Made by a program: the position numbers and the translations under genes | NCBI GenBank assembly: GCA_049324235.1 | Contig: JBMOLJ010000060.1 | Span: 135 to 64,134, forward strand | Length of the DNA: 64,000 nucleotides | Direction: 5' to 3' | Source: Bacillota bacterium | GTDB taxonomy: Bacteria > Bacillota > Clostridia > Christensenellales > UBA1431 | Notes under the pieces: generated by a model | Told to the model about the DNA's origin: nothing | The model's database searches: none | The model's input: only the letters and a program-made list of their open reading frames with translations | Part shown: positions 35,672 to 61,632 of the stretch, piece after piece | How positions within the stretch are numbered: position 1 is the stretch's first letter | How the letters are laid out: the number at the start of each line of letters is the position of its first letter

Positions 35672-36007
35672 TTACTCCATTGTGAGATAGTCTCCCTCTG
35701 CGATTTTCCATTGCGCCGCGCTCCCCGCGGCCACCTCCAGGACAGACGCCGCTTCCTTTACCCTGGGCCCTACCCTCCCCGGCTCGAGGGTGACAATGCG
35801 CGCTATCCGCATGTCCCTGGTCAGATACAAAACATCCAGGGGGAACCGCATGCGGAAGGTATGCACCTGGTTGCAGGGGATAATAAGCAGCCCTTCTCCC
35901 TCTAGCAGTTCCCGCCTCCCCATAAGCCCCTTAAAGCGCCTGAACGGATTGGCGGCACGGGCTGCCTTATCGCAAAGGAGAATATTCCGGAAATAGACCT
36001 TATGCAT
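35672..36007 (-). CDS. DUF192-family protein
   Basis: GLMGRRELLEGEGLLIIPCNQVHTFRMRFPLDVLYL matches the DUF192 (COG1430) core. Start at MHKVYF. Confidence 0.75.
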   Translation of the reverse strand: MHKVYFRNILLCDKAARAANPFRRFKGLMGRRELLEGEGLLIIPCNQVHTFRMRFPLDVLYLTRDMRIARIVTLEPGRVGPRVKEAASVLEVAAGSAAQWKIAEGDYLTME

Positions 36008-36021
36008 ATCCGGCCACCTCA

Positions 36022-36942
36022 TCATTTGATCACTTTGATCACGGTCGGCCCGAGCAGTATGATGAAGATTACCGGAAATATAAAGAGCACCATGGGCAGC
36101 ATCATCCGCACCGGCGCCTTCATCCCCTTTTCCTGGGCCATCTGCCTCCGGTTTATGCGGAGCTGCTGGGCCTGTGCACGCAGCACATTTTTCATCGGGG
36201 TCCCAAACTGCTCGGACTGCACCACGGCGGATGCAAAGGTCTGAAGTTCGGAAACGTTGCTCCGCTGGCTCAGGGAAGCCAACGCTTCGCGCCTGGGCCT
36301 GCCCATCTGAACCTCCCGGTATACCTGGCTCAGTTCCTCTATCAAAGGGCCCTTGAACCTCTCGGTAACCTTGAGCAGCGCCGAATCAAAGCTCAGCCCT
36401 GCTTCAATGCTCACACAGAGCACATCCATGACGTTGGGCATCTGGTTCTGTATCGCAAGCTGCCTGGACCTGATGCGCGACCGGAGAAAGAGACGGGGAA
36501 TCAGCACCGCCGCCACCAGGGTAAAAAGTACGATGAGCAGATTTATCTGGTAGTCGGCCTGCAGTAACAAAACAGCGGCTATGCCAACGAGCAATACCCC
36601 GGCGGTGACCAGCAGCCTTAGCAGCATGAACTCCTGCACCGGCAGATGAATCCCAGCAAGGCGCAGCTCGTTCATCATGCGGACGCTGCGCTCGTTATTC
36701 TTTGACGGATTTGCGGAGCGGCCTTTGGACAGCTTTGAAAGCTGGGCCAGCGCCCTCTTTAATGCCGTGGAAATAAACCGCTGGTAAAAGCTTTTTTCCA
36801 GCTCCTCATCAACATAAAGCGTGTCTTTACGTATCCACTTAAGCTGTTGCTTTTTGATCGCTTCTCTGCGGATGGTTTCTCTGCAGCATATCAGGGTGAC
36901 CAGCAACGCCAGTATGGATGTGCTTGCGATGAGCAGCGCCAT
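36022..36942 (-). CDS. tadC: Tad pilus platform protein, T2SSF domain (TadC-like)
   Basis: T2SSF-type inner membrane protein directly downstream of the tadB-like gene. Confidence 0.85.
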   Translation of the reverse strand: MALLIASTSILALLVTLICCRETIRREAIKKQQLKWIRKDTLYVDEELEKSFYQRFISTALKRALAQLSKLSKGRSANPSKNNERSVRMMNELRLAGIHLPVQEFMLLRLLVTAGVLLVGIAAVLLLQADYQINLLIVLFTLVAAVLIPRLFLRSRIRSRQLAIQNQMPNVMDVLCVSIEAGLSFDSALLKVTERFKGPLIEELSQVYREVQMGRPRREALASLSQRSNVSELQTFASAVVQSEQFGTPMKNVLRAQAQQLRINRRQMAQEKGMKAPVRMMLPMVLFIFPVIFIILLGPTVIKVIK

Positions 36943-36956
36943 GCATGTTTCCTCCC

Positions 36957-37880
36957 CTAATACTTTATCGTCACTATCTTTTTAATAATCAGAAAACCAA
37001 TGATCTCCATGCCCGCGGCGACTGCCAGCATGCCTATGCCCAGAGGCGTATTGAAGAACGTCTGTATATAGGCTGGATTTATGAGCATGAGCAGCCCGCC
37101 GATCGCTACCGGAATAAGGCCGACCACCATGCTGCTGATACGGCCTGAGGCGGTCATCACACGGATATCGTCCTTGAGCTTGATCCGCTCCTTGATGGTC
37201 ACCGAGGTGTTTTCCAGAATCTCGAGCAGGTTTCCCCCGACCTGGCGCTGTATCTGTACTGCCGAGACTGTCAGCATCAAATCGGTGCTGCGCACCCTTT
37301 GCACCATATTGTCCAAAGCGGTATCGATGCTGTTGCCGAGCTGGATTTCCTTAACCGTGCGTCCGAACTCCTTAGCTATCGGGTCGGGCATCTCATGCGC
37401 GATGTTGGCCATCGCCTGCTGGAAGGTAAGGCCGGAGCGCAGGCAGTTGCCCATGAGCAGCAGCGCATCCCCCAGTTGTTTCTCAAACAGCTGCAGCCGC
37501 TTGCCCTTGGCTCTGTGTACGATCACGGGCGGGATGACCACGCCCATGGCGGCTACGGCCAGCATGGTAACGGGATGCGCGCCGATGAGCATCAGCAATC
37601 CGGCCGGTACCAGCGCGGCGGCGAGCCAGAGCGTGAGAAACTCCTCCGGCCGCATGCGTATGCCGGAGGATGCCAGTTCCTCCGCGAATACCCTGGACAC
37701 AGGGATGCGCGGGCGCTTCTGCTTCTTTTCACGGGCAGGGCGGGCATGTTCCTGCTGCCCTGTAAGCGCCTGCAGCCGCTGTTTTATCCGCGTTCTGTCC
37801 GCCGTCGCCCGGGTAAGGAGGATAACGGCTGTAAAGAACACGAAAAATGCGATTGCAACTGCCAATAATACGACTTGCAT
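36957..37880 (-). CDS. tadB: Tad pilus platform protein, T2SSF domain (TadB-like)
   Basis: T2SSF domain. Start taken at MQVVLLAV (ATG 37880, GGAAGGG RBS); the track start at 37928 overlaps tadA. Confidence 0.85.
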   Translation of the reverse strand: MQVVLLAVAIAFFVFFTAVILLTRATADRTRIKQRLQALTGQQEHARPAREKKQKRPRIPVSRVFAEELASSGIRMRPEEFLTLWLAAALVPAGLLMLIGAHPVTMLAVAAMGVVIPPVIVHRAKGKRLQLFEKQLGDALLLMGNCLRSGLTFQQAMANIAHEMPDPIAKEFGRTVKEIQLGNSIDTALDNMVQRVRSTDLMLTVSAVQIQRQVGGNLLEILENTSVTIKERIKLKDDIRVMTASGRISSMVVGLIPVAIGGLLMLINPAYIQTFFNTPLGIGMLAVAAGMEIIGFLIIKKIVTIKY

Positions 37881-37908
37881 CCGAAATCCCTTCCTGCTGG
37901 CTGGTAAA

Positions 37909-39237
37909 CTAGTTAAACCACTCTTCATGCACCGCTATGCCGTTATTCCGAATCTTCTCCAAGCACTGGGGATGTATGCCGGTTCCCCTGAACCGCCCCT
38001 TAAACCGCCCCTGGCTGTCCATCTGCCCCTGTGTCTCAAAAACAAACAGGTCCTGCATACTCACAATATCTCCCTCCATGCCGGTGATCTCAGTGATGTT
38101 GGTCACGCGGCGCGTACCGTCCCTGAGCCTTGACTGCTGGACGATGATGTCCACCGCCGAGGCGATCTGGCTGCGGATGGCGAAAAGCGGCAGCTCCATC
38201 CCTGCCATCATAACCATGGTCTCTATCCTTGCGATGGTATCCCGGGGGGAATTCGCGTGCGTGGTGGTAAGGGACCCGTCATGGCCCGTGTTCATGGCCT
38301 GCAGCATATCCAGAGCTTCGGCGGAGCGGACCTCGCCCACGATGATGCGGTCGGGGCGCATTCGGAGCGCGTTGCGCACCAGATCACGGATGGTCACCTG
38401 CCCCCGCCCCTCCGTGTTCGGCGGACGGCTTTCCAGCGTGACCACATGGTCCTGTTTGAGCTGGATCTCGGCGGCGTCTTCGATGGTGACGATGCGCTCG
38501 TCATCGGGAATGAATCCCGAGAGGATGTTTAACAGCGTAGTTTTGCCGCTCCCTGTCCCTCCCGATACAACGATATTCAGCCGCCCTTTCACGCAGGCCT
38601 CCAAAAAGCTCATCATCTTGGGGGAAACGGAACCGAAGTCTATAATGTTCTGGGCGGTGTAAGGGGTCTGTGAGAATTTCCGAATGGTGACCACCGGCCC
38701 GACGAGCGAAAGGGGCGGGAGTATGACATTCACGCGGGAGCCGTCCTTGAGCCTGGCGTCCACCATCGGGCTGGCCTCGTCGACGTGGCGTCCCACGCTG
38801 GAAACAATGCGGTCGATGATGTTGAGCACGTGCGTCTGGTCCCTGAAAGGCACCTCCACCTGATGGAGCCTTCCCTGTCTCTCGATATACACCTGTCGGC
38901 AGCCGTTGATCATGATCTCGGTGATGGTCGGATCGGCCAACAACGTCTCCAGTGGGCCGAATCCCATGATATCGTTGTAGAGTTCGTTCGCAATGCGGCT
39001 GCGCTCGGTATAGGGCACGTCTCCGGCTTCGAGTTGAAGGATTTCGTCGAGCTTTTCCCGTACCGTCTGGGCGTCGGGATCCTTTGCTTCGTTCAACGCC
39101 TCGATGGTATTGGTCCGTACACGCTCCTTCAAACGGATATGTGCATCGTTGCCACGCAGCTTTATTGTGGGCTCCGGCGCTCCTTCCTGGGGTAAGGCTT
39201 CGCCGCGCTGCTGTTCCAGCCGTTTGAGCAGGCTCAT
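37909..39237 (-). CDS. tadA: CpaF/TadA secretion ATPase
   Basis: Walker A GGTGSGKTTLLN, Asp and His boxes, and a CpaF-type N-terminal domain. AGGAGGG RBS before the ATG at 39237. Confidence 0.92.
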   Translation of the reverse strand: MSLLKRLEQQRGEALPQEGAPEPTIKLRGNDAHIRLKERVRTNTIEALNEAKDPDAQTVREKLDEILQLEAGDVPYTERSRIANELYNDIMGFGPLETLLADPTITEIMINGCRQVYIERQGRLHQVEVPFRDQTHVLNIIDRIVSSVGRHVDEASPMVDARLKDGSRVNVILPPLSLVGPVVTIRKFSQTPYTAQNIIDFGSVSPKMMSFLEACVKGRLNIVVSGGTGSGKTTLLNILSGFIPDDERIVTIEDAAEIQLKQDHVVTLESRPPNTEGRGQVTIRDLVRNALRMRPDRIIVGEVRSAEALDMLQAMNTGHDGSLTTTHANSPRDTIARIETMVMMAGMELPLFAIRSQIASAVDIIVQQSRLRDGTRRVTNITEITGMEGDIVSMQDLFVFETQGQMDSQGRFKGRFRGTGIHPQCLEKIRNNGIAVHEEWFN

Positions 39238-39250
39238 TCTCTCATCCCTC

Positions 39251-40372
39251 CTACCGCTTTTCCTCAATCCAGTGGCTTGCAAGGCGCTGTACGCCTTGGG
39301 AAACCGGCGTTCGTGGCATGCCGATTACGAAGGGAACTCCCCGCTCCTGGCTAAGGCGGACGGTCTTTACGTCTTCGGGCAGGATACAGGAAGCCGGCAT
39401 CTCCAGCACCTGTTCAAAATCCTTGTATTTCAGGATTCCTTTATGATCCGCGTTGAGCAGCAGAAGCACCTTCTCCTCCTGGTGCAGCGAACGGAATACG
39501 CCCAGCATCAGCTTCGCGGCGCGCAGGTTGGAAATATCCATACGGGACACCAGTAGGATGTCGTCGGAATTTTCCAACGCGGTAAGTGTGCATTCGCTTA
39601 GGTCGGCCGGCAGATCCAGCACAATGAAATCATAATAGGGGCGCATGATGCTTATGAGGGCTTCCACATGCCGGGGCGTGATATATTCGGCATACTCCGG
39701 CGCGGAAGGCGAACACAGGATGCTTACCCCGCTCGAATGCTGGATACAAAAGCTTTTCACATCGTCAATGGCAAACATGGACTTTTCCTGAACCAGATCG
39801 GAAATGGAATCCTTGGCCGTAATGTTCAGCAGCAATGCGGCATCCCCGAAGTTCAGGCAAAGATCAATGAGGGCAGTCCTGCGTCCGGTTTGTGCCAAAG
39901 CAACCGCCAGATTGACTGCAACGGTTGTTTTTCCTGCCCCTCCCTTGCCGCCGTATACCGCGATGACGTGCGGTTCCCTGCCTGTTTCACCGGTGCGGCC
40001 TTTTTCAAAAACCGCGGCCTGTATAAGCAAATCCCTAATGTTATCGAGGTCCTGTATGCCGGCTACCCTCCTAATGCCTGCCTGCATGGCGCTGTCTATG
40101 AGCGGCATGTCCACCTCAGGCGCAAGAAGCACCAGCGCACAGCCCGGAAACCCCAGGTATATCCTTTCGGCGATATCCATGACCCCTGTATCGCCCTTTT
40201 CCTGAACCAGCAAGACAACGTGCGGGGCATACCCCCCAATTTTCTCAAGGACAGCGGTATCCATAGCGGCAAAGCCCACCAGGGCTATTTCTTCTTCTTT
40301 AGAAAGATTCTGACGCAGAGCAAGGCGCATTTCCTCGCTGTTTACCACAGCGAGTACCTTGTATTTTGACAT
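39251..40372 (-). CDS. tadZ: TadZ/CpaE: atypical receiver domain fused to a ParA/MinD-type ATPase
   Basis: The N-terminal receiver-like fold lacks the phospho-acceptor Asp (VVLLVQEKGD). Deviant Walker A GGKGGAGKTT. Confidence 0.85.
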   Translation of the reverse strand: MSKYKVLAVVNSEEMRLALRQNLSKEEEIALVGFAAMDTAVLEKIGGYAPHVVLLVQEKGDTGVMDIAERIYLGFPGCALVLLAPEVDMPLIDSAMQAGIRRVAGIQDLDNIRDLLIQAAVFEKGRTGETGREPHVIAVYGGKGGAGKTTVAVNLAVALAQTGRRTALIDLCLNFGDAALLLNITAKDSISDLVQEKSMFAIDDVKSFCIQHSSGVSILCSPSAPEYAEYITPRHVEALISIMRPYYDFIVLDLPADLSECTLTALENSDDILLVSRMDISNLRAAKLMLGVFRSLHQEEKVLLLLNADHKGILKYKDFEQVLEMPASCILPEDVKTVRLSQERGVPFVIGMPRTPVSQGVQRLASHWIEEKR

Positions 40373-40384
40373 GAACCGCACCAA

Positions 40385-40592
40385 CCTTTCGATGACAAAC
40401 CCCAAACGCTAAAGCGGTTGGGATTCTGAGCGGAGCGAGGTTTGCTCCCGTACCATTGCCTCAAAGTCCTTCCCTGGCAACTCCATGCAAAACATAGTTT
40501 TGCATGGATGCGGAGGAGCAACAGGGCGGGGCGAAAAATCCTTGAATCGCAAAGCGATTAGGGATTTTGAGCGGAGCGAAGTTTGCTCCGAC
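40385..40592. repeat. Family-B mosaic hairpin repeat, short copy inside the Tad operon
   Basis: Contains two GAGCGGAGCGA(A/G)GTTTGCTCC modules, the CCTTCCCTGGCAACTCCA module shared with 57481-57500, and a perfect CCATGCAAAAC-ata-GTTTTGCATGG hairpin. Confidence 0.75.
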
Positions 40593-40593
40593 G

Positions 40594-41277
40594 TTATGGA
40601 TAGTTCTTGGGATTGGCCGCTTTTTTATCCAGCACCGGCCTGAGCAGCAGGCGCAATTTCCCGTTTGTTGCGGCATAGTTGATCTTCAGGGCTTCCTGCG
40701 GCGTTACGGAGAGTGTGACGGTCGTATAGCTGTTTGCAGAATCGGTCGATTTCGGCACCTTTGTGCCGGTTTGCAGCACCGGTACGTTTTCCACCAGCAT
40801 TGTCGAGACCGGCCGGCTCTTGCCCCCCGCATCATATGCGATAACTGTGCCAATGACGTCGACGTAATCCCCCTTTGAGATGAAACCCGAAACCCCGGAA
40901 ACGTCGTCTACCGCGACTGAAACCGCGCGGCGGCCTTTTTCGAGCATGAAAGAAAGCGCTGAGTCTTCCTTTCCCTGCATGGCAAGCTGAGGGATAAGCA
41001 CCTGTTCCTTTGGCAGCAGGGGATACTTTGTGATCTTGCCGACAACCTGCTTAATATCTGTAGCCGCATAGGGGCTTATGCCAGAGCCCGTAAGCTGGGT
41101 CAAAGCCACCATATCCTCCGTTATTTGCGTGTTGGCCGGTATCTCCTTTACCGCAATGACGACCCGGCTCGCATCGGACGAGGCGCTGGCATTCCGCTCA
41201 AGCGAGGATGCGAAGAGGTAAACCGCAACGCCCGCTATGACAGCCATTAGGATTGAAAGTATGTAGACCTTTTTCAA
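40594..41277 (-). CDS. cpaB: CpaB/RcpC-family Flp pilus assembly protein (SAF domain)
   Basis: N-terminal TM segment, SAF-like VAVKEIPANTQITEDMV, and a C-terminal beta domain. Confidence 0.85.
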   Translation of the reverse strand: MKKVYILSILMAVIAGVAVYLFASSLERNASASSDASRVVIAVKEIPANTQITEDMVALTQLTGSGISPYAATDIKQVVGKITKYPLLPKEQVLIPQLAMQGKEDSALSFMLEKGRRAVSVAVDDVSGVSGFISKGDYVDVIGTVIAYDAGGKSRPVSTMLVENVPVLQTGTKVPKSTDSANSYTTVTLSVTPQEALKINYAATNGKLRLLLRPVLDKKAANPKNYP

Positions 41278-41363
41278 GGGTTTCCCTCCTGTTCATACAC
41301 CAGATGCAAACGGTTTGGTTATGCCGGATGCCCCGTGGCGGCAAAACATGGTTTTCCTTCTGT

Positions 41364-42353
41364 TCATTCAACCAGGCGGATACGGTATATGCCGTAATCG
41401 CCCGTGCCGCCGATAACTCCTTCCGATTCCCCCTGCTGGGTTTGAAAGGTTATCTTTGAGGCGACGATCTCCCCTTTGCTGTTTGTCCCCTCCAATATGA
41501 ACGGAACAAATCCTTTCACCTTTACGGTATGGCTGTCGACAAGGCTGTATACGATAAGGGTCACCACTCGGGGGCAATCCGGGTCGAAATGCTCCAGGGT
41601 GCATCCTCCCCCGCCTGCATAATGGGTGCACTGGCTATACCGCGTCGTGAAAGCTTCGGTAGTGGGTCCCGCCATGTTGCCCGGTTCCACCGGCAGTACG
41701 TCACCTATGCGCAGAATACCGTCATATCCGAAAGCCAGCCAGCTCTCAAAATCCTTCGCGCCGCCGCCCTTAACCCCGTCAAGGTCCAATGCGCCGAAGA
41801 AACCTTCCGTACCGCCTCCACCGCCATATTTGATAACCAAATGCTGCGTCTGATTTGCCGCAAGCAATTCCTGAAGCCTGGTTTGTTCAATCCCGAGCGG
41901 GACTACGGCGGTGGAAGACGACGCGGGCTTGAGTGTCACCTTTGCGCTTTTCGACACGGTGGTGCCATTTATGCCCAGGATAGGCCCGAATCCGTAGGAT
42001 ACATCGGTTTTTAGCCGCACGCGCACCCCATAACACCTGCCGCCCGAAATATCCTCCATATCCACCGCTTCCACGTTATCGGCCGGAACCCCGTTTTTCA
42101 CCGCGTAATCGGCTGCGGTGCTTTTGATCTGCTGGATCTTCGCATTGTCGTCGGCCGATACCGGCAGCAGCGTACCCGCTGCCAGGGCAGCGGCATCGGC
42201 GGCGGTTTGGGATACGCTTCCCTGCATATATGCCGTTCCCAGATCAATCACAAGCCCGCACAGGGCAATGATAAGCGTAAAGGCAACCGCGGCGATGACT
42301 GCAACGGAGCCGTCCTCACGGCGCCAGATTTTTTTCAGAACCATAGGAATCAC
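41364..42353 (-). CDS. TadG-like minor pilin / pilus assembly protein
   Basis: N-terminal Tad_N-type segment RREDGSVAVIAAVAFTLIIALCGLVIDLG followed by a large extracellular domain. Confidence 0.7.
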   Translation of the reverse strand: MIPMVLKKIWRREDGSVAVIAAVAFTLIIALCGLVIDLGTAYMQGSVSQTAADAAALAAGTLLPVSADDNAKIQQIKSTAADYAVKNGVPADNVEAVDMEDISGGRCYGVRVRLKTDVSYGFGPILGINGTTVSKSAKVTLKPASSSTAVVPLGIEQTRLQELLAANQTQHLVIKYGGGGGTEGFFGALDLDGVKGGGAKDFESWLAFGYDGILRIGDVLPVEPGNMAGPTTEAFTTRYSQCTHYAGGGGCTLEHFDPDCPRVVTLIVYSLVDSHTVKVKGFVPFILEGTNSKGEIVASKITFQTQQGESEGVIGGTGDYGIYRIRLVE

Positions 42354-42356
42354 ATC

Positions 42357-42758
42357 CTAACCTATGCGCATAATGCTGGTGGATTGGAGGACTATCTCCT
42401 GATCCGGCACAAATATCCCCACAAGCGGCGTAATCGCTTTGATCTTTTTCGTAACCTTCACCTTAACATCCTGCTGATCAACGACTTCCGCCGTCACCAG
42501 CATATCGCCCGTATCCCCCAAGCCTGATACCGACTTTACCTTCTCGGTCACAAGGGTGGTCAAATCGGCTGCATCGGCGTTTACGACGGCATACCTTGCT
42601 CCTTCCCTGCTGCAGTTATCGACCATAAGCTGGTTGGAGAATATCCAGCCGAAGTCTATAATGCCGCACACGATCAGTATAAGCAAAGGGATGACATAGG
42701 CCGCTTCCACAATAGACTGGCCTTCTTCCCTCCTGAACCGGCGGCGTCCCTGCTTCAT
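42357..42758 (-). CDS. tadE: TadE-like pseudopilin
   Basis: N-terminus EEGQSIVEAAYVIPLLILIVCGIIDFG is typical of the TadE family. Confidence 0.8.
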   Translation of the reverse strand: MKQGRRRFRREEGQSIVEAAYVIPLLILIVCGIIDFGWIFSNQLMVDNCSREGARYAVVNADAADLTTLVTEKVKSVSGLGDTGDMLVTAEVVDQQDVKVKVTKKIKAITPLVGIFVPDQEIVLQSTSIMRIG

Positions 42759-42796
42759 GCCCTGTCATCCTCCTTTCCGGCGCACACTTAACGCGG

Positions 42797-42839
42797 GGTT
42801 TCCCATTGCCTTCTTCTGTTGCGAAGGCAATGGGAAACC
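42797..42839 (-). other. 17-bp perfect stem-loop immediately 3' of the flp pilin gene
   Basis: GGTTTCCCATTGCCTTC ... GAAGGCAATGGGAAACC, 10 nt after the flp stop codon, with no T-tract. Confidence 0.7.
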
Positions 42840-42848
42840 ATGCTCCTC

Positions 42849-43013
42849 TTAGCTGGGAATCTTGGAGTTTGCGTCTTCGAATATGCCCGAAATTTTGGGT
42901 CCGAGGATGATGAGCGCCGCAATGGCCGCTACCGCGATCAGCCCCAGTATCAGGCCGTATTCCACCATGCCCTGCCCGTCTTCGTCCCTGAGAATCCTCA
43001 TAAGTTTTTTCAT
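42849..43013 (-). CDS. flp: Flp-family type IVb pilin (54 aa; absent from the ORF track)
   Basis: GGAGGAGGGG lies 4 nt before the ATG at 43013. Sequence: MKKLMRILRDEDGQGMVEYGLILGLIAVAAIAALIILGPKISGIFEDANSKIPS, with the Flp motif G/xxxxEY plus a hydrophobic helix. Confidence 0.88.
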   Translation of the reverse strand: MKKLMRILRDEDGQGMVEYGLILGLIAVAAIAALIILGPKISGIFEDANSKIPS

Positions 43014-43047
43014 AATTCCCCTCCTCCTTTTGTTTTGGGTTTTCCCC

Positions 43048-43692
43048 TCAAATTGCTAGCACCAACGGAAATAGAAGTGTTACCATCATACCCAGGGAAA
43101 GCGGTGGTCCTATGGCCACCTTTGTTTTTAAATCCCCCCTTTTCGTTATAATGAGGTAAAGAGAATAAGTCGCGAGAACAGCAGCCATGACCAGCACCGC
43201 CTGAAAAAGCCCGACAATGCCAAGGCAGAATCCGGCCGCTGCCGCCAGTTTTATATCCCCCCAGCCGATGGAGATTCCAATACGCGAAGGTATGAGAAAT
43301 AAAATGAATCCTGCTGCAAGCCCCGCAAGCGCGGAGAGGAAAGACGCCGGATTGCCGCTTATCGCTATTGCGCCTGACTTGAGAATCAATAAAGCCAACA
43401 GCAGTTCGTTGGGAATTTTGCGGATGCTGCCGTCTACCACTGAAAGGCTGGTAAGTACAAGGAAGATGCCCATGTATTCAATGCCGCTTGCAAGCTCCCT
43501 GGTCCACAGGGCGATTATCCCAAAGCCCACGGCGCCCGCGCTTATCCATAGCGCCGGACTCCAAAGGCCGTTTGAGGGCGTCCTTTTGGTACCCATACCG
43601 GTGCGGTTTTTTATCAGCAGATAGGTCAGATGGCGCATGCATTCTCCCAGCACGCCGCCGAACAGGATAAATACCGGTATACGCAAATCCAT
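43048..43692 (-). CDS. tadV: Prepilin peptidase, A24 family (TadV/CpaA-like)
   Basis: Polytopic protein with both catalytic Asp motifs (VVDGSIRKIPN and GWGDIKLAAAAG). AAGGAGG RBS. Confidence 0.85.
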   Translation of the reverse strand: MDLRIPVFILFGGVLGECMRHLTYLLIKNRTGMGTKRTPSNGLWSPALWISAGAVGFGIIALWTRELASGIEYMGIFLVLTSLSVVDGSIRKIPNELLLALLILKSGAIAISGNPASFLSALAGLAAGFILFLIPSRIGISIGWGDIKLAAAAGFCLGIVGLFQAVLVMAAVLATYSLYLIITKRGDLKTKVAIGPPLSLGMMVTLLFPLVLAI

Positions 43693-43720
43693 GCCTATGC
43701 GCCTCCTTTTGGGTTTAAGG

Positions 43721-43755
43721 AAAACAAAAACCGCAATCCTTCCCTGGTTGCGGTA
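43721..43755 (-). terminator. Leader terminator just 5' of the tadV RBS (candidate riboswitch expression platform)
   Basis: On the minus strand: ACCGCAACC-agggaa-GGaTTGCGGT followed by TTTTTGTTTT, ending about 15 nt before AAAAGGAGG. Confidence 0.6.
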
Positions 43756-44029
43756 ATCGTTCCTCTCTTTGTGCTAAAAGTACAACCTTTTGATGCCGGA
43801 GGCTGATACTTTTGGCGCAATATACCCGACAACCAATTGAAACTGCCGACCATAGACCTTACAATCCGTAGTTTTGCTTATTCCGCCGTTTTTTACGTTG
43901 AAGCTTTGATGCAGGAATACCGAGCATTATGAATCACGTGGGATGCTTATTCAAAAAGTAAAGGCACCTAACCCCCTACAGAGGTCAGCTGCCTTGAAAA
44001 ACCAAAATAAGCCTTCAGAAATAAAGCTG

Positions 44030-44132
44030 TCTTTCTGATTCCACTGGCAACTGGCTGCCCTAGGAACAAACCCCTTAGGCCCTGTAGCTTTGCGTCCCAC
44101 CTTTTCAGGTGGTTTGCCTTTTTCACTTGGTA
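44030..44132 (-). promoter_or_regulatory. c-di-GMP-I (GEMM) riboswitch aptamer
   Basis: The minus strand reads GGCAAACCACCUGAAAAGGUGGGACGCAAAGCUACAGGGCCUAAGGGGUUUGUUCCUAGGGCAGCCAGUUGCC. It is collinear with the conserved blocks of the Vc2 aptamer (GGCAAACC, GAAA-type loop, GGGACGCAAAGCC, GGCCUAA). Confidence 0.85.
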
Positions 44133-44137
44133 GCATC

Positions 44138-44166
44138 ATTATTGCATGGACATATGTACTTGTCAA
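44138..44166 (-). promoter_or_regulatory. Sigma-A-type promoter driving the riboswitch and Tad operon
   Basis: TTGACA (44166-44161), a 17-nt spacer, then AATAAT (44143-44138), about 10 nt upstream of the aptamer. Confidence 0.55.
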
Positions 44167-44218
44167 TGTATCCCCTGTTGACTGATTGTGAAAGTCACAT
44201 CCCGTCTCCCTGCATTTT

Positions 44219-44326
44219 TTAGCGCAGCGCCAATTCATGAAGCGTTTTTATTAGCGTATCCATTTCCTCAAAAGTATTGTACAGGCCGATCGAAGCGCGG
44301 GCCGTGCCAAACAGCCCCTTGATAAC
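44219..44326 (-). pseudogene. C-terminal 35-codon remnant of a SufS/Csd-type cysteine desulfurase
   Basis: Translates to VIKGLFGTARASIGLYNTFEEMDTLIKTLHELALR-stop, matching the conserved C-terminus (G-T-x-R-A-S-x-x-x-Y-N-T-x-E-E-x-D) of class V aminotransferases. An in-frame TGA lies immediately upstream and there is no 5' part. Confidence 0.6.
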
Positions 44327-59578: not shown

Positions 59579-59874
59579 TCTATGGAAGTGGCTGTAAAAT
59601 GGTTCGGCATCTCACTTAGCCCCTATAAAAAATGCACCTCTTTTCGCGCCGATTTGGTAAATTATGTTACCTGATTACGCTGAATATTTCATGTTGATAT
59701 ACGTATTGTCTGTTAAACAAACTTTGCATCCGCCCGAAAGGAAGGGACGCAAAGTCCAGGGCCTTCCCGTACATATCACGGATGGCAACCGGTTGCCGAA
59801 GGGGAAGTTTTTATGTTGTTTCCACAACACAAGAACCACCTTTTACAAATTTAGATAATAAGAGGTTGGTATGG

Positions 59875-61632
59875 ATGAAAAGAATCCAAAATATCCTTCT
59901 CGTTCTGATCGCATTCTTCGTGTTTTCGGTTGGAACAACAAACGTACAGGCGGCCACAGACCGAACACCGCCCACAAAACCCACAGGCCTTGCTGTCTCA
60001 TCCGTAACCCAGACAACGGTTAAACTGCGGTGGACGGCCTCCAGGGACAACACCGGCGTCTATTCTTACAGAATATACCGCAATAATAAATATATCGGCT
60101 CCACTAAATCGACAGTCTATACGGTCAAGGGGCTTACCTCCGGTAAATCGTATGCGTTCTATGTAAAAGCAACCGACAAAAGAAAAAACTATTCAAAGCC
60201 CAGCGCAACCATCCGTGTGCAAACTCTGCCCAAAAATAATGCAGCGCCTGCCTCCTCGGCAAGTAAGACGGGCACTACGGGTACCTCCAAAAAGGATACG
60301 CAAGCCCCGACCGCGCCAACAAGCCTTTCCGTTGCTTCCGTGAACGCCGATTCGGCAAGCCTTACATGGAAGCCTTCGACCGATAATGTCAGTGTCGCCG
60401 CCTATCTGGTGTACAGGAACAGCGTAAACATCGAGTCCGTTTCGGGTACAAGCTATAGCGCAACGGGCCTGACACCCTCGACATCCTACTCCTTCTGTGT
60501 AAAGGCCCGCGACGCTGCGGGCAATTTGTCCCCTGCCAGCAATACGGTGACGTTCAAAACGGCAGCCATACCCCCAATCGGCAGAATCATCGCCGGATAT
60601 TACGCGTCATGGGCTGCCTACTCAGGATATACGCCCGATAAAATCCCGGCGGCGCAACTGACCCATATTACCTATGCCTTTGCTAATATCGACGATAACC
60701 TGAAAGTTGAAATGGGCGATCCCTATGTGGATGCGTCAAATTTTACAAAACTGAACGCACTGAAGAAGCTCTATCCCAACATCAAAACGCTCATTTCTGT
60801 CGGCGGCTGGGACTGGTCGGGCAAGTTCTCGGACGCGGCGCTGACCGATGCAAGCCGCACGGCTTTTGCAGACAGCGCGGTTGCCTTTATCAAGCAATAC
60901 GGCTTCGACGGCGTGGATATCGACTGGGAGTATCCCTGCGGGGGCGGGCTTGCCGCCAATACCGCAAGGCCAGAGGATAAGCATAATTTTACGCTTCTCA
61001 TGATGAAGCTGCGCGAGAAGCTGGACGTACAAGGCGCTGTCGACGGGAGACATTACCTGCTCACTTTTGCTGGGGGGGCCGGAACCGGCTATGCCGCAAA
61101 CACCGAGCTTTCGCTGCTGGCAGGGTATGTCGATTTCGCTACCGTCATGACCTATGATATACACGGCACATGGGATAATTATACGGATTTCAACGCGCCG
61201 CTCCACACGCCTTCCGAGCCGTCTCCGCAATACAAATGGAGCGTGGATGCGGCCATCAAACTCTGGCAGTCCAAGGGTTTCCCTGCATCCAAAACCGTCA
61301 TGGGGGTGCCGTTCTACGGATACAGGTATACCGGAGTAGCCACCGCCAACAACGGACTATACCAGCGCTTTACCGGCGGCGCTTCCATTTCCTATGACGC
61401 GATCGTATCCTCGTATCTCAACAATTCGTCGTATATACGGCGGTACCATACGGACGCGCGCGTGCCCTGGCTGCTGGGCGGCTCCACGTTCATCTCGTAT
61501 GACGACCCGCAGTCCATCGCCGAAAAGGCGGCGTACATCAATTCCGGCGGGATCGCGGGCGCAGCCATATGGGAGCTTTCCTGCAACACGAACGGCACGC
61601 TGCTAAGCGCGCTGTATAACGGTTTGAAATAG
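59875..61632 (+). CDS. Secreted GH18 glycoside hydrolase (chitinase-like) with two FN3 domains
   Basis: Signal peptide from MKRIQNILLV. Two FN3 repeats (PTxLxVxSVT...W). Catalytic motif DGVDIDWEYP. Confidence 0.88.
   Translation: MKRIQNILLVLIAFFVFSVGTTNVQAATDRTPPTKPTGLAVSSVTQTTVKLRWTASRDNTGVYSYRIYRNNKYIGSTKSTVYTVKGLTSGKSYAFYVKATDKRKNYSKPSATIRVQTLPKNNAAPASSASKTGTTGTSKKDTQAPTAPTSLSVASVNADSASLTWKPSTDNVSVAAYLVYRNSVNIESVSGTSYSATGLTPSTSYSFCVKARDAAGNLSPASNTVTFKTAAIPPIGRIIAGYYASWAAYSGYTPDKIPAAQLTHITYAFANIDDNLKVEMGDPYVDASNFTKLNALKKLYPNIKTLISVGGWDWSGKFSDAALTDASRTAFADSAVAFIKQYGFDGVDIDWEYPCGGGLAANTARPEDKHNFTLLMMKLREKLDVQGAVDGRHYLLTFAGGAGTGYAANTELSLLAGYVDFATVMTYDIHGTWDNYTDFNAPLHTPSEPSPQYKWSVDAAIKLWQSKGFPASKTVMGVPFYGYRYTGVATANNGLYQRFTGGASISYDAIVSSYLNNSSYIRRYHTDARVPWLLGGSTFISYDDPQSIAEKAAYINSGGIAGAAIWELSCNTNGTLLSALYNGLK

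Follow-up and report, generated by a model that had tools for sequence, protein, structure and literature searches.

A canonical c-di-GMP-I riboswitch with its own promoter precedes a Tad/Flp pilus operon of a Christensenellales bacterium, with control of the operon predicted

This work concerns the leader of a Tad/Flp pilus operon in a stretch of 64,000 nucleotides (nt), hereafter the window, from a Bacillota bacterium of the Christensenellales (GenBank assembly GCA_049324235.1, contig JBMOLJ010000060.1, positions 135 to 64,134 of the forward strand). Judged by its sequence, the leader contains a real, canonical riboswitch of the class that binds cyclic di-guanosine monophosphate (c-di-GMP), class I (c-di-GMP-I), with a promoter of its own, and the operon behind it is predicted to be under its control. 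The element had been proposed in a sequence-only reading of the same DNA, made without database searches, and the proposal held up: the covariance-model score, the Pfam annotation of the operon, and the presence of aptamers before tadV in 10 of 12 related lineages all support it. With regard to mechanism, we consider it probable that the riboswitch acts as an OFF switch through a terminator shortly behind the aptamer (T1), and that the remainder of the leader, which ends in a further terminator (T2), is the relic of a second riboswitch. Knowledge of the c-di-GMP-I riboswitch class itself is unchanged by these findings; what they offer is a concrete, testable link between c-di-GMP and the Tad/Flp pilus in Christensenellales-type gut and digester Bacillota.

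The aptamer and its promoter

The minus-strand sequence quoted for the aptamer in the sequence-only reading is present where it had been placed, and its c-di-GMP-I identity was borne out by Rfam. RF01051 (c-di-GMP-I) matches 44128-44043 (-) over the full length of the model (positions 1-87 of 87), at 80.4 bits where the gathering score is 35, with E = 3.3e-14 for the whole 64-kb window and 3.1e-16 for a 601-nt region, so that a chance match is excluded. The aptamer shows the two-helix architecture of its class, in which a GNRA tetraloop caps the first hairpin and the second helix bears a receptor: the first hairpin (44112-44097, CCACCU-GAAA-AGGUGG) carries a GAAA tetraloop at 44106-44103, the GACGCAAAG core is in place, and the second helix is a CCUAAG-type receptor helix (CCUAAG...CUAGG). 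All consensus pairs of RF01051 are formed save at two flagged non-canonical positions. Related leaders, referred to below by locus number, were obtained by a TadV protein search and contig look-ups, and their contigs were scanned with Rfam; among them the first-hairpin stem covaries, and in L005 the aptamer sequence is identical to that of the window.

Model columns 11, 38, and 83 hold G44118, A44091, and C44047; by our own mapping of the numbering these are the equivalents of G20, A47, and C92 in Vc2, the type example of c-di-GMP-I from Vibrio cholerae. An A at the G20 position is the signature of GEMM-Ib variants, which sense c-AMP-GMP (cyclic AMP-GMP). The window aptamer has G at 44118 in this column and is therefore of the c-di-GMP type rather than the A20 c-AMP-GMP type. 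In Vc2, G20 pairs with one guanine of c-di-GMP and C92 with the other, while A47 touches the ribose (PMC5888326). The two aptamers share the full-length family match, the GAAA hairpin, the GACGCAAAG core, the CCUAAG-type helix, and the contact bases; Vc2, however, comes from a Gram-negative host and is without a simple terminator platform, whereas the window has a classic intrinsic terminator/antiterminator pair. By every test run on its sequence the element belongs to c-di-GMP-I, and we regard 44128-44043 (-) as an aptamer of that class with near certainty, ligand binding being predicted.

The promoter proposed ahead of the aptamer (TTGACA, 17 nt, AATAAT) likewise stood. Together with an extended -10 element (TGcAATAAT, 44146-44138) it matches the consensus at 11 of 12 positions plus the TG, and it has the top score in the region. 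Transcription would start at about 44131, 3 nt 5′ of the aptamer match, and the aptamer sits right behind the promoter, 351 nt ahead of tadV. TTGACA, a spacer of 17-18 nt, and a -10 element of TAnAnT type are placed in the same way before aptamer 1 in L001, L007, L010, L013, L008, L016, and L018. A plus-strand "terminator" at 44097-44112 was rejected, being the reverse complement of the aptamer's own GAAA hairpin. Upstream of the tad leader lies argJ (45611-44418), and about 65 nt past its stop codon the minus strand has a hairpin (CCCCUUGAUAgaugaguUAUCAAGGGG, 44352-44322) followed by CUGUUU, which is probably the argJ terminator and would shield the tad promoter from transcription arriving from upstream.

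Expression platform and predicted polarity

Folding of the leader revealed T1, which begins 48 nt 3′ of the aptamer and combines a free energy (dG) of -22.4 kcal/mol with a U-rich tail; part of it was also flagged by the scan that scored the promoter. The spacer between aptamer and terminator had earlier been called unusually long, an artefact of T1 having been overlooked. When the nascent transcript was folded in steps of increasing length with Turner-model energies, the 3′ strand of the aptamer, CAGUUGCC (44053-44046), paired either within the aptamer or, as an antiterminator, with GGCAGCUG (43993-43986) of the T1 5′ arm. At 149-157 nt, with the 5′ arm of T1 out and the 3′ arm not yet, the antiterminator is the minimum free energy (MFE) fold of the window leader and beats a forced aptamer fold by 11-16 kcal/mol. 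Terminator and antiterminator states are only ~3 kcal/mol apart at full length, a near-balance that in the model would give the bistable behaviour a switch should have. The antiterminator is also the pre-terminator MFE in five of six related leaders with an aptamer of the same sequence type (type 1, see below); in L006 the terminator was mis-called and the fold is uninformative, and the antiterminator duplex is compatible (-14.9 kcal/mol).

Pairing was counted in a hand-registered alignment of seven loci (the window and the six related type-1 leaders). The T1 helix pairs in 89% of cells, with compensatory changes at four pairs, against 24-56% in slid registers, and the antiterminator pairs in 79.6% of cells in register, against 9-49% when slid. 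Mutually exclusive T1 and antiterminator structures coupled to the aptamer were thus found computationally, and the modelling points to T1 (43995-43952) as the riboswitch's own platform.

On these grounds the following course is proposed. A single transcript from about 44131 would open with the c-di-GMP-I aptamer (44128-44043). Once c-di-GMP is bound, the aptamer would hold its 3′ strand CAGUUGCC, the T1 hairpin (43995-43961) would form, RNA polymerase would stop at about 43952, and the Tad/Flp operon would not be transcribed. With no ligand, CAGUUGCC would pair with GGCAGCUG of the T1 5′ arm, and this antiterminator would let transcription proceed toward tadV. The 230 nt after T1 would be the remains of a type-2 c-di-GMP-I OFF riboswitch, intact in relatives, in which ligand sensing has been lost, and T2 (43755-43721) and its antiterminating strand (43834-43826) would have outlasted the lost aptamer. 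Whether the switch is ON or OFF had been thought unreadable from sequence; OFF is predictable, since the aptamer 3′ strand and the T1 3′ arm compete for the T1 5′ arm. Because T1 is self-contained and its 5′ arm is contested by the aptamer 3′ strand, capture of that strand by the ligand would let T1 form, giving transcriptional OFF control, and under this model a c-di-GMP-high state would most likely silence the pilus genes.

The same aptamer and T1 might instead work with ON polarity, c-di-GMP inducing the pilus operon. That would agree with the biological expectation that c-di-GMP often switches on adhesins and pili. Many Gram-positive GEMM representatives, moreover, were first modelled as ON (PMC1950547). 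In ON designs, however, the terminator 5′ arm overlaps the aptamer 3′ strand, whereas T1 here is self-contained and lies downstream, and the aptamer 3′ strand is the only strong alternative partner of the T1 5′ arm, so that its capture by the ligand frees T1. We consider ON polarity unlikely.

OFF control of a surface appendage is reportedly known from Cd1, a c-di-GMP-I riboswitch said to have been described by Sudarsan et al. in 2008 and in later C. difficile work as a transcriptional OFF switch in the long leader of the flgB flagellar operon. This flgB leader would be the closest functional analogue of the window leader. Cd1, too, opens a long leader with a class I aptamer, ahead of a large surface-appendage operon in a Clostridia-class host; its terminator follows soon after the aptamer and far upstream of the first start codon, and c-di-GMP reportedly causes premature termination, as is predicted for the window. 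The targets differ, flagella for Cd1 and the Tad/Flp pilus for the window, where the extra leader length would be a decayed second riboswitch. OFF polarity for pili, as predicted here, runs opposite to the type IV pilus paradigm of C. difficile.

Related leaders and the remains of a second riboswitch

In an exact-match look-up the window's TadV was not on record in public collections, and genome and metagenome scans with TadV alone gave L001 as the sole close locus among the matches listed, the rest being distant, Dehalococcoidia-type, and without a riboswitch. The TadV protein search yielded a homologue clade in Christensenellales and other Bacillota. At least one RF01051 aptamer (65-83 bits) lies directly 5′ of tadV in 10 of the 12 distinct lineages of this clade, and two do so in five. 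Two complete tandem aptamers are found in L001, L007, L010/11, L013, and L018, a window-like layout in L005 (TadV identity 97%) and L006 (76%; its contig begins within the aptamer), and one aptamer in L008/9, L016, and L019, while L012 and L014/15 have no aptamer. The relatives' aptamers fall into two sequence types: type 1, that of the window, always precedes a T1-type terminator, and type 2 always a T2-type terminator. In L016, with aptamer 1 only, T1 is the sole terminator and abuts the tadV ribosome-binding site (RBS); in L001 and L007 the gap from T1 to aptamer 2 is too short for a promoter. These layouts argue that the leader is one transcription unit and that T1 is the platform of aptamer 1.

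The sequence-only reading had taken a terminator at 43721-43755, just before the tadV RBS, as belonging to the riboswitch. The hairpin exists (T2, dG about -14 kcal/mol), but it is not the platform of this riboswitch, a part that falls to T1; T2 goes with the second, decayed aptamer. T2-homologous hairpins of the form A[AC]CGCAA...UUGCG[GU]U, followed by a U run, stand after intact aptamer 2 in L001, L007, L010, L013, L018, and L019. A single riboswitch using the distal T2 (43755-43721) across a spacer of ~290 nt seems to us very improbable. T2 is a real terminator-like hairpin just 5′ of the RBS, and a long two-terminator c-di-GMP-I platform is documented in Bc1 (PMC11218506). T1, however, is both nearer (48 nt after the aptamer) and stronger (-22.4 vs ~ -14 kcal/mol), and its 5′ arm is the one complementary to the aptamer 3′ strand. 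The T2 5′ arm pairs instead with GGUUGUCGG (43834-43826), the homologue of a separate aptamer's P1 strand in relatives, where T2 always follows aptamer 2 and where L016, having aptamer 1 only, has T1 only.

A second RF01051 match was sought in 43650-44250 and none was found, even at E<=10; other RNA families were rejected for the same interval, an Rfam E-value scan having given sub-threshold noise only (Srn266 at 20 bits, and WT1-AS_5 and RMST_5, both eukaryotic long non-coding RNAs). A custom covariance model of aptamer 2, built from four type-2 aptamers of tandem relatives, found no intact second aptamer in the window with default filters. With filters off it gave 7.2 bits (E ~0.09) at 43904-43817, on the expected strand and between T1 and T2. 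The best-kept stretch, 43871-43841 (CUACGGAUUGUAAGGUCUAUGGUCGGCAGUU), aligns locally with P2 and part of the 3′ strand of aptamer 2 in L001 and L013 at 24/31 identity (z 4.6-5.9), and none of 300 dinucleotide shuffles aligned equally well; L007 and L010 align less well. The GAAA hairpin, the GACGCAAAG core, and the P2 5′ strand are lost, so the relic can no longer be a c-di-GMP-I aptamer, and the family model recognises one aptamer in the window leader rather than the two of a tandem. The spacer between aptamer and T2 is long because this decayed riboswitch fills it.

What survives of the second unit is its terminator and the strand opposed to it. GGUUGUCGG is homologous to the GAAGUUACGG box of intact aptamer 2, which pairs with the T2 5′ arm in L001, L010, and L013, and which has two roles in intact type-2 units, as 3′ strand of extended P1 and as T2 antiterminator. 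The pairing is kept in L005 (GGUUGCGG/CCGCAAUC) and L006 (AAGUUGCGG/CCGCAAUUU). At full length the T2 state is better than the anti-T2 state by 3.5 kcal/mol, and T2 may thus work as a ligand-blind partial attenuator. Its sequence suggests that T2 is the orphaned platform of the decayed riboswitch, and in the model it is probably now a leaky, ligand-blind attenuator, or is read through.

Comparison of the window with L005 separates the two units. Promoter, aptamer 1, and T1 show 0 differences in 215 positions, against 9 in 261 for relic and T2 (Fisher p = 0.005); coding sequences differ by ~2% and other intergenic DNA by 5.5%. For this one sequence pair, the figures fit selection acting on the first unit and a looser constraint on the second. 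An alternative is that the region between T1 and T2 is a working second sensor, either an aptamer reshaped for a new ligand or a site for a protein or small RNA, that still controls T2. Its T2/anti-T2 complementarity survives substitutions among the window (GGUUGUCGG/CCGCAACC), L005 (GGUUGCGG/CCGCAAUC), and L006 (AAGUUGCGG/CCGCAAUUU), and three of the nine differences between the window and L005 fall in T2/anti-T2 elements with both pairings preserved. Set against this, the aptamer core (GAAA hairpin, GACGCAAAG, P2 5′ strand) is lost, the divergence is near that of other non-coding DNA (3.4% vs 5.5%), the sequences number three, two of them nearly identical, and no Rfam family matches in the region. 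A working second sensor therefore has very little probability in our view, and a relic remains the preferred account of the second unit.

It is also conceivable that the riboswitch is decoupled from the operon, producing a short terminated RNA or being unresponsive in vivo, with tad transcribed from an internal promoter or capped by constitutive termination at T2. A promoter-like site (TTGAAT-17-CATAAT, 43954-43926) does lie just past T1 and matches at 9 of 12 positions, T2 is favoured over its antiterminator by 3.5 kcal/mol, and in Bc1 a two-terminator leader that does not respond is already known. The internal site is weak, however, and at chance level, ~1.2 such sites being expected in the region; it was rejected as a promoter and is kept only as part of this improbable alternative. 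The missing promoter room between T1 and aptamer 2 in L001 and L007, and T1 abutting the RBS in L016, indicate that the ancestral unit was one transcript, and the absence of differences from L005 in promoter, aptamer, and T1 (0/215), where flanking non-coding DNA differs by 3-5%, indicates function under selection.

Several points weigh against OFF control through T1 with a second unit in decay. The usual pattern is that high c-di-GMP leads to attachment, and OFF control of an adhesive pilus runs counter to it. The pilA1 type IV pilus switch of C. difficile is a class II riboswitch and ON, as cited in PMC6916266. Bc1 is a c-di-GMP-I riboswitch with two terminators that binds its ligand and yet gives no regulation in vivo (PMC11218506). 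Like the window leader, it has one intact aptamer followed by two intrinsic terminators, of which the downstream one may mask control by the upstream one, and by analogy the intact T2 of the window could mask T1 control; the Bc1 terminators are, however, 28 bp apart within one platform, whereas those of the window are ~200 nt apart and the second appears to stem from a separate, decayed riboswitch. Covariation in the antiterminator is almost nil, with one pair changed on both sides and shuffle controls not exceeded, because one strand is fixed by the aptamer, and the case for the antiterminator lies in conserved complementarity, not covariation. The U tract of T1 is interrupted (UUUACUUUUU), Turner-model energies take no account of ligand or tertiary contacts, and model-level support for the relic is weak (7.2 bits, E ~0.09). 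Finally, ligand binding, transcription start, and termination are all predictions from sequence.

An association of this kind is not new, given that cpaA-linked GEMM elements were listed in 2007 and that tandems are common. Table 2 of the 2007 GEMM paper (Weinberg et al.) has cpaA among the gene families with at least two regulated instances, and the same paper reports GEMM frequently in tandem and pilus genes among its targets (PMC1950547). cpaA encodes the Tad/Cpa prepilin peptidase and belongs to the same gene family as tadV of the window; the list was drawn mostly from Proteobacteria and came with no mechanism or polarity (PMC1950547). A survey published in 2022 lists 347 doublets of c-di-GMP-I with separate terminators (PMC9481103), and Bc3-5 of Bacillus thuringiensis is an example of a pseudo-cooperative c-di-GMP-I tandem (PMC4759541). 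That layout, two complete aptamers each with a terminator before tadV, is seen in L001, L007, L010/11, L013, and L018, whereas only the first unit is intact in the window, whose leader is therefore not a tandem. Our literature search found no paper on c-di-GMP riboswitches before Tad/Flp loci of Bacillota or Christensenellales, and nothing on surface structures or second-messenger biology and signalling in Christensenellales.

Taken together, the tandem, single, and relic leaders form a natural series in which the gain and loss of tandem riboswitches can be followed, with orphan terminators left behind. In L001 (3731-3817) and L007 (2211-2297) the G20 column holds A in the second aptamer and G in the first, and the type-2 aptamers of L010, L013, L018, and L019 have G there; on this base, Tad pili in the Bacillota carrying L001 and L007 may be under a two-signal gate of c-di-GMP together with c-AMP-GMP. 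A wider scenario, which we regard as speculative and rather doubtful, would have c-di-GMP repress the Tad pilus in this clade of Christensenellales through one or two OFF riboswitches, the leader recording riboswitch turnover (types 1 and 2 together, type 1 alone, type 2 alone, type 1 with a relic). T2 and anti-T2 of the window would then perhaps be a working regulator that has lost its sensor for c-di-GMP and is either adapting to another input or settled in the role of an attenuator, and the A20 aptamer 2 of L001 and L007 would make a two-signal gate.

The pilus operon and its surroundings

The Tad/Flp operon placed downstream of the leader by the sequence-only reading was recovered by Pfam in full. 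All components of a Tad/Flp (type IVc) pilus are encoded in co-oriented, consecutive open reading frames (ORFs) of the minus strand from 43692 to 36022, followed by a DUF192 gene (Table 1).

Table 1. Features of the tad leader and the Tad/Flp operon in the window
Feature	Position	Strand	Description or basis
SigA/Sigma-70-type promoter	44138..44166	-	-35 TTGACA 44166-44161, 17-nt spacer, -10 AATAAT 44143-44138
c-di-GMP-I (GEMM-I) aptamer	44043..44128	-	RF01051 full-length, aligned with the aptamer-1 class of relatives
Switching strand CAGUUGCC	44046..44053	-	aptamer 3′ strand including the C92 equivalent; stepwise folds and register test
Variable spacer hairpin inside the antiterminator helix	44000..44040	-	differing sequence, same position in every related leader
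T1 intrinsic terminator, predicted platform	43952..43995	-	5′ arm AAGGCAGCUGACC 43995-43983, 3′ arm GGUUAGGUGCCUU 43973-43961, tail UACUUUUUG 43960-43952
Second (type-2) c-di-GMP-I aptamer, putative decayed remnant	43817..43904	-	custom model and local alignment
Anti-T2 strand GGUUGUCGG	43826..43834	-	partner of the T2 5′ arm in pre-terminator folds (window, L005, and L006)
T2 terminator	43721..43755	-	CCGCAACC 43753-43746, GGAUUGCGG 43739-43731, UUUUUGUUUU 43730-43721
tadV Shine-Dalgarno AAAGGAGG	43702..43709	-	9 nt ahead of the ATG at 43692
Tad/Flp pilus operon	35672..43692	-	Pfam above curated cut-offs for every gene, and ORFs
tadV/cpaA	43692-43048	-	Peptidase_A24
flp	43013-42849	-	Flp_Fap
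tadE	42758-42357	-	TadE
tadG-like	42353-41364	-	Tad
rcpC/cpaB	41277-40594	-	RcpC
tadZ/cpaE	40405-39251	-	ParA-like
tadA/cpaF	39282-37909	-	T2SSE
tadB	37928-36957	-	T2SSF
tadC	36942-36022	-	T2SSF
DUF192 gene	36025-35672	-	DUF192

Whereas the window has one flp pilin gene after tadV (43013-42849), two to four stand there in tandem in L010 (3179-4065), L013 (3172-3896), L007 (3179-3598), and L016 (2161-2584). Downstream of the Tad genes and co-oriented with them are two ORFs of 302 and 368 amino acids (35637-34729 and 33843-32737, minus strand) with no Pfam match, which may be lineage-specific parts of the pilus operon.

The 95-amino-acid ORF noted earlier in the leader exists (44238-43951) and has no Pfam match; overlapping the promoter, the aptamer, and T1, it was rejected as a gene. 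A 52-amino-acid ORF at 43853-43695, also without a Pfam match and overlapping the relic and T2, was rejected likewise. Hypothetical proteins are called over aptamers and terminators in relatives too, as in L007 (2164-2478). ORFs called over riboswitch aptamers and terminators are likely annotation artefacts, and annotation gains from the removal of such spurious ORFs, both the two in the window and the called genes over relatives' aptamers.

Also as previously noted, a gene for an EAL protein (31053-29737, minus strand) lies ~13 kb from the riboswitch. The protein matches PF00563 at 162.5 bits as a stand-alone domain and keeps motifs of catalytic type, EGLVR (in place of EALxR), DDVGAG, EGVE, and QGFYF; its C-terminal ~150 amino acids have no family match. 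As had been proposed, the protein is probably an active phosphodiesterase of c-di-GMP.

Between argJ and the tad promoter, the minus strand holds an in-frame remnant of ~30-35 codons at 44308-44219 (GTARASIGLYNTFEEMDTLIKTLHELALR*). The remnant matches the extreme C-terminus of class-V aminotransferases of the SufS/Csd type (PF00266, positions 350-371 of 371, E 0.076) and shows indels relative to L005. To judge from this match, it looks like a pseudogene scrap, the trace of an old rearrangement beside the Tad locus.

A second c-di-GMP-I match in the window, on the plus strand at 59715-59800, is borderline (37.9 bits vs the cut-off of 35). The base at its G20 column is U, its GAAA hairpin contains a 2x2 mismatch, and a search for its terminator gave no convincing candidate. 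The element lies 75 nt 5′ of a plus-strand gene (59875-61632) whose product is a GH18 chitinase with a signal peptide and two fn3 domains. Chitin genes are a classic GEMM association, and the altered contact base of the element could mean a changed ligand specificity.

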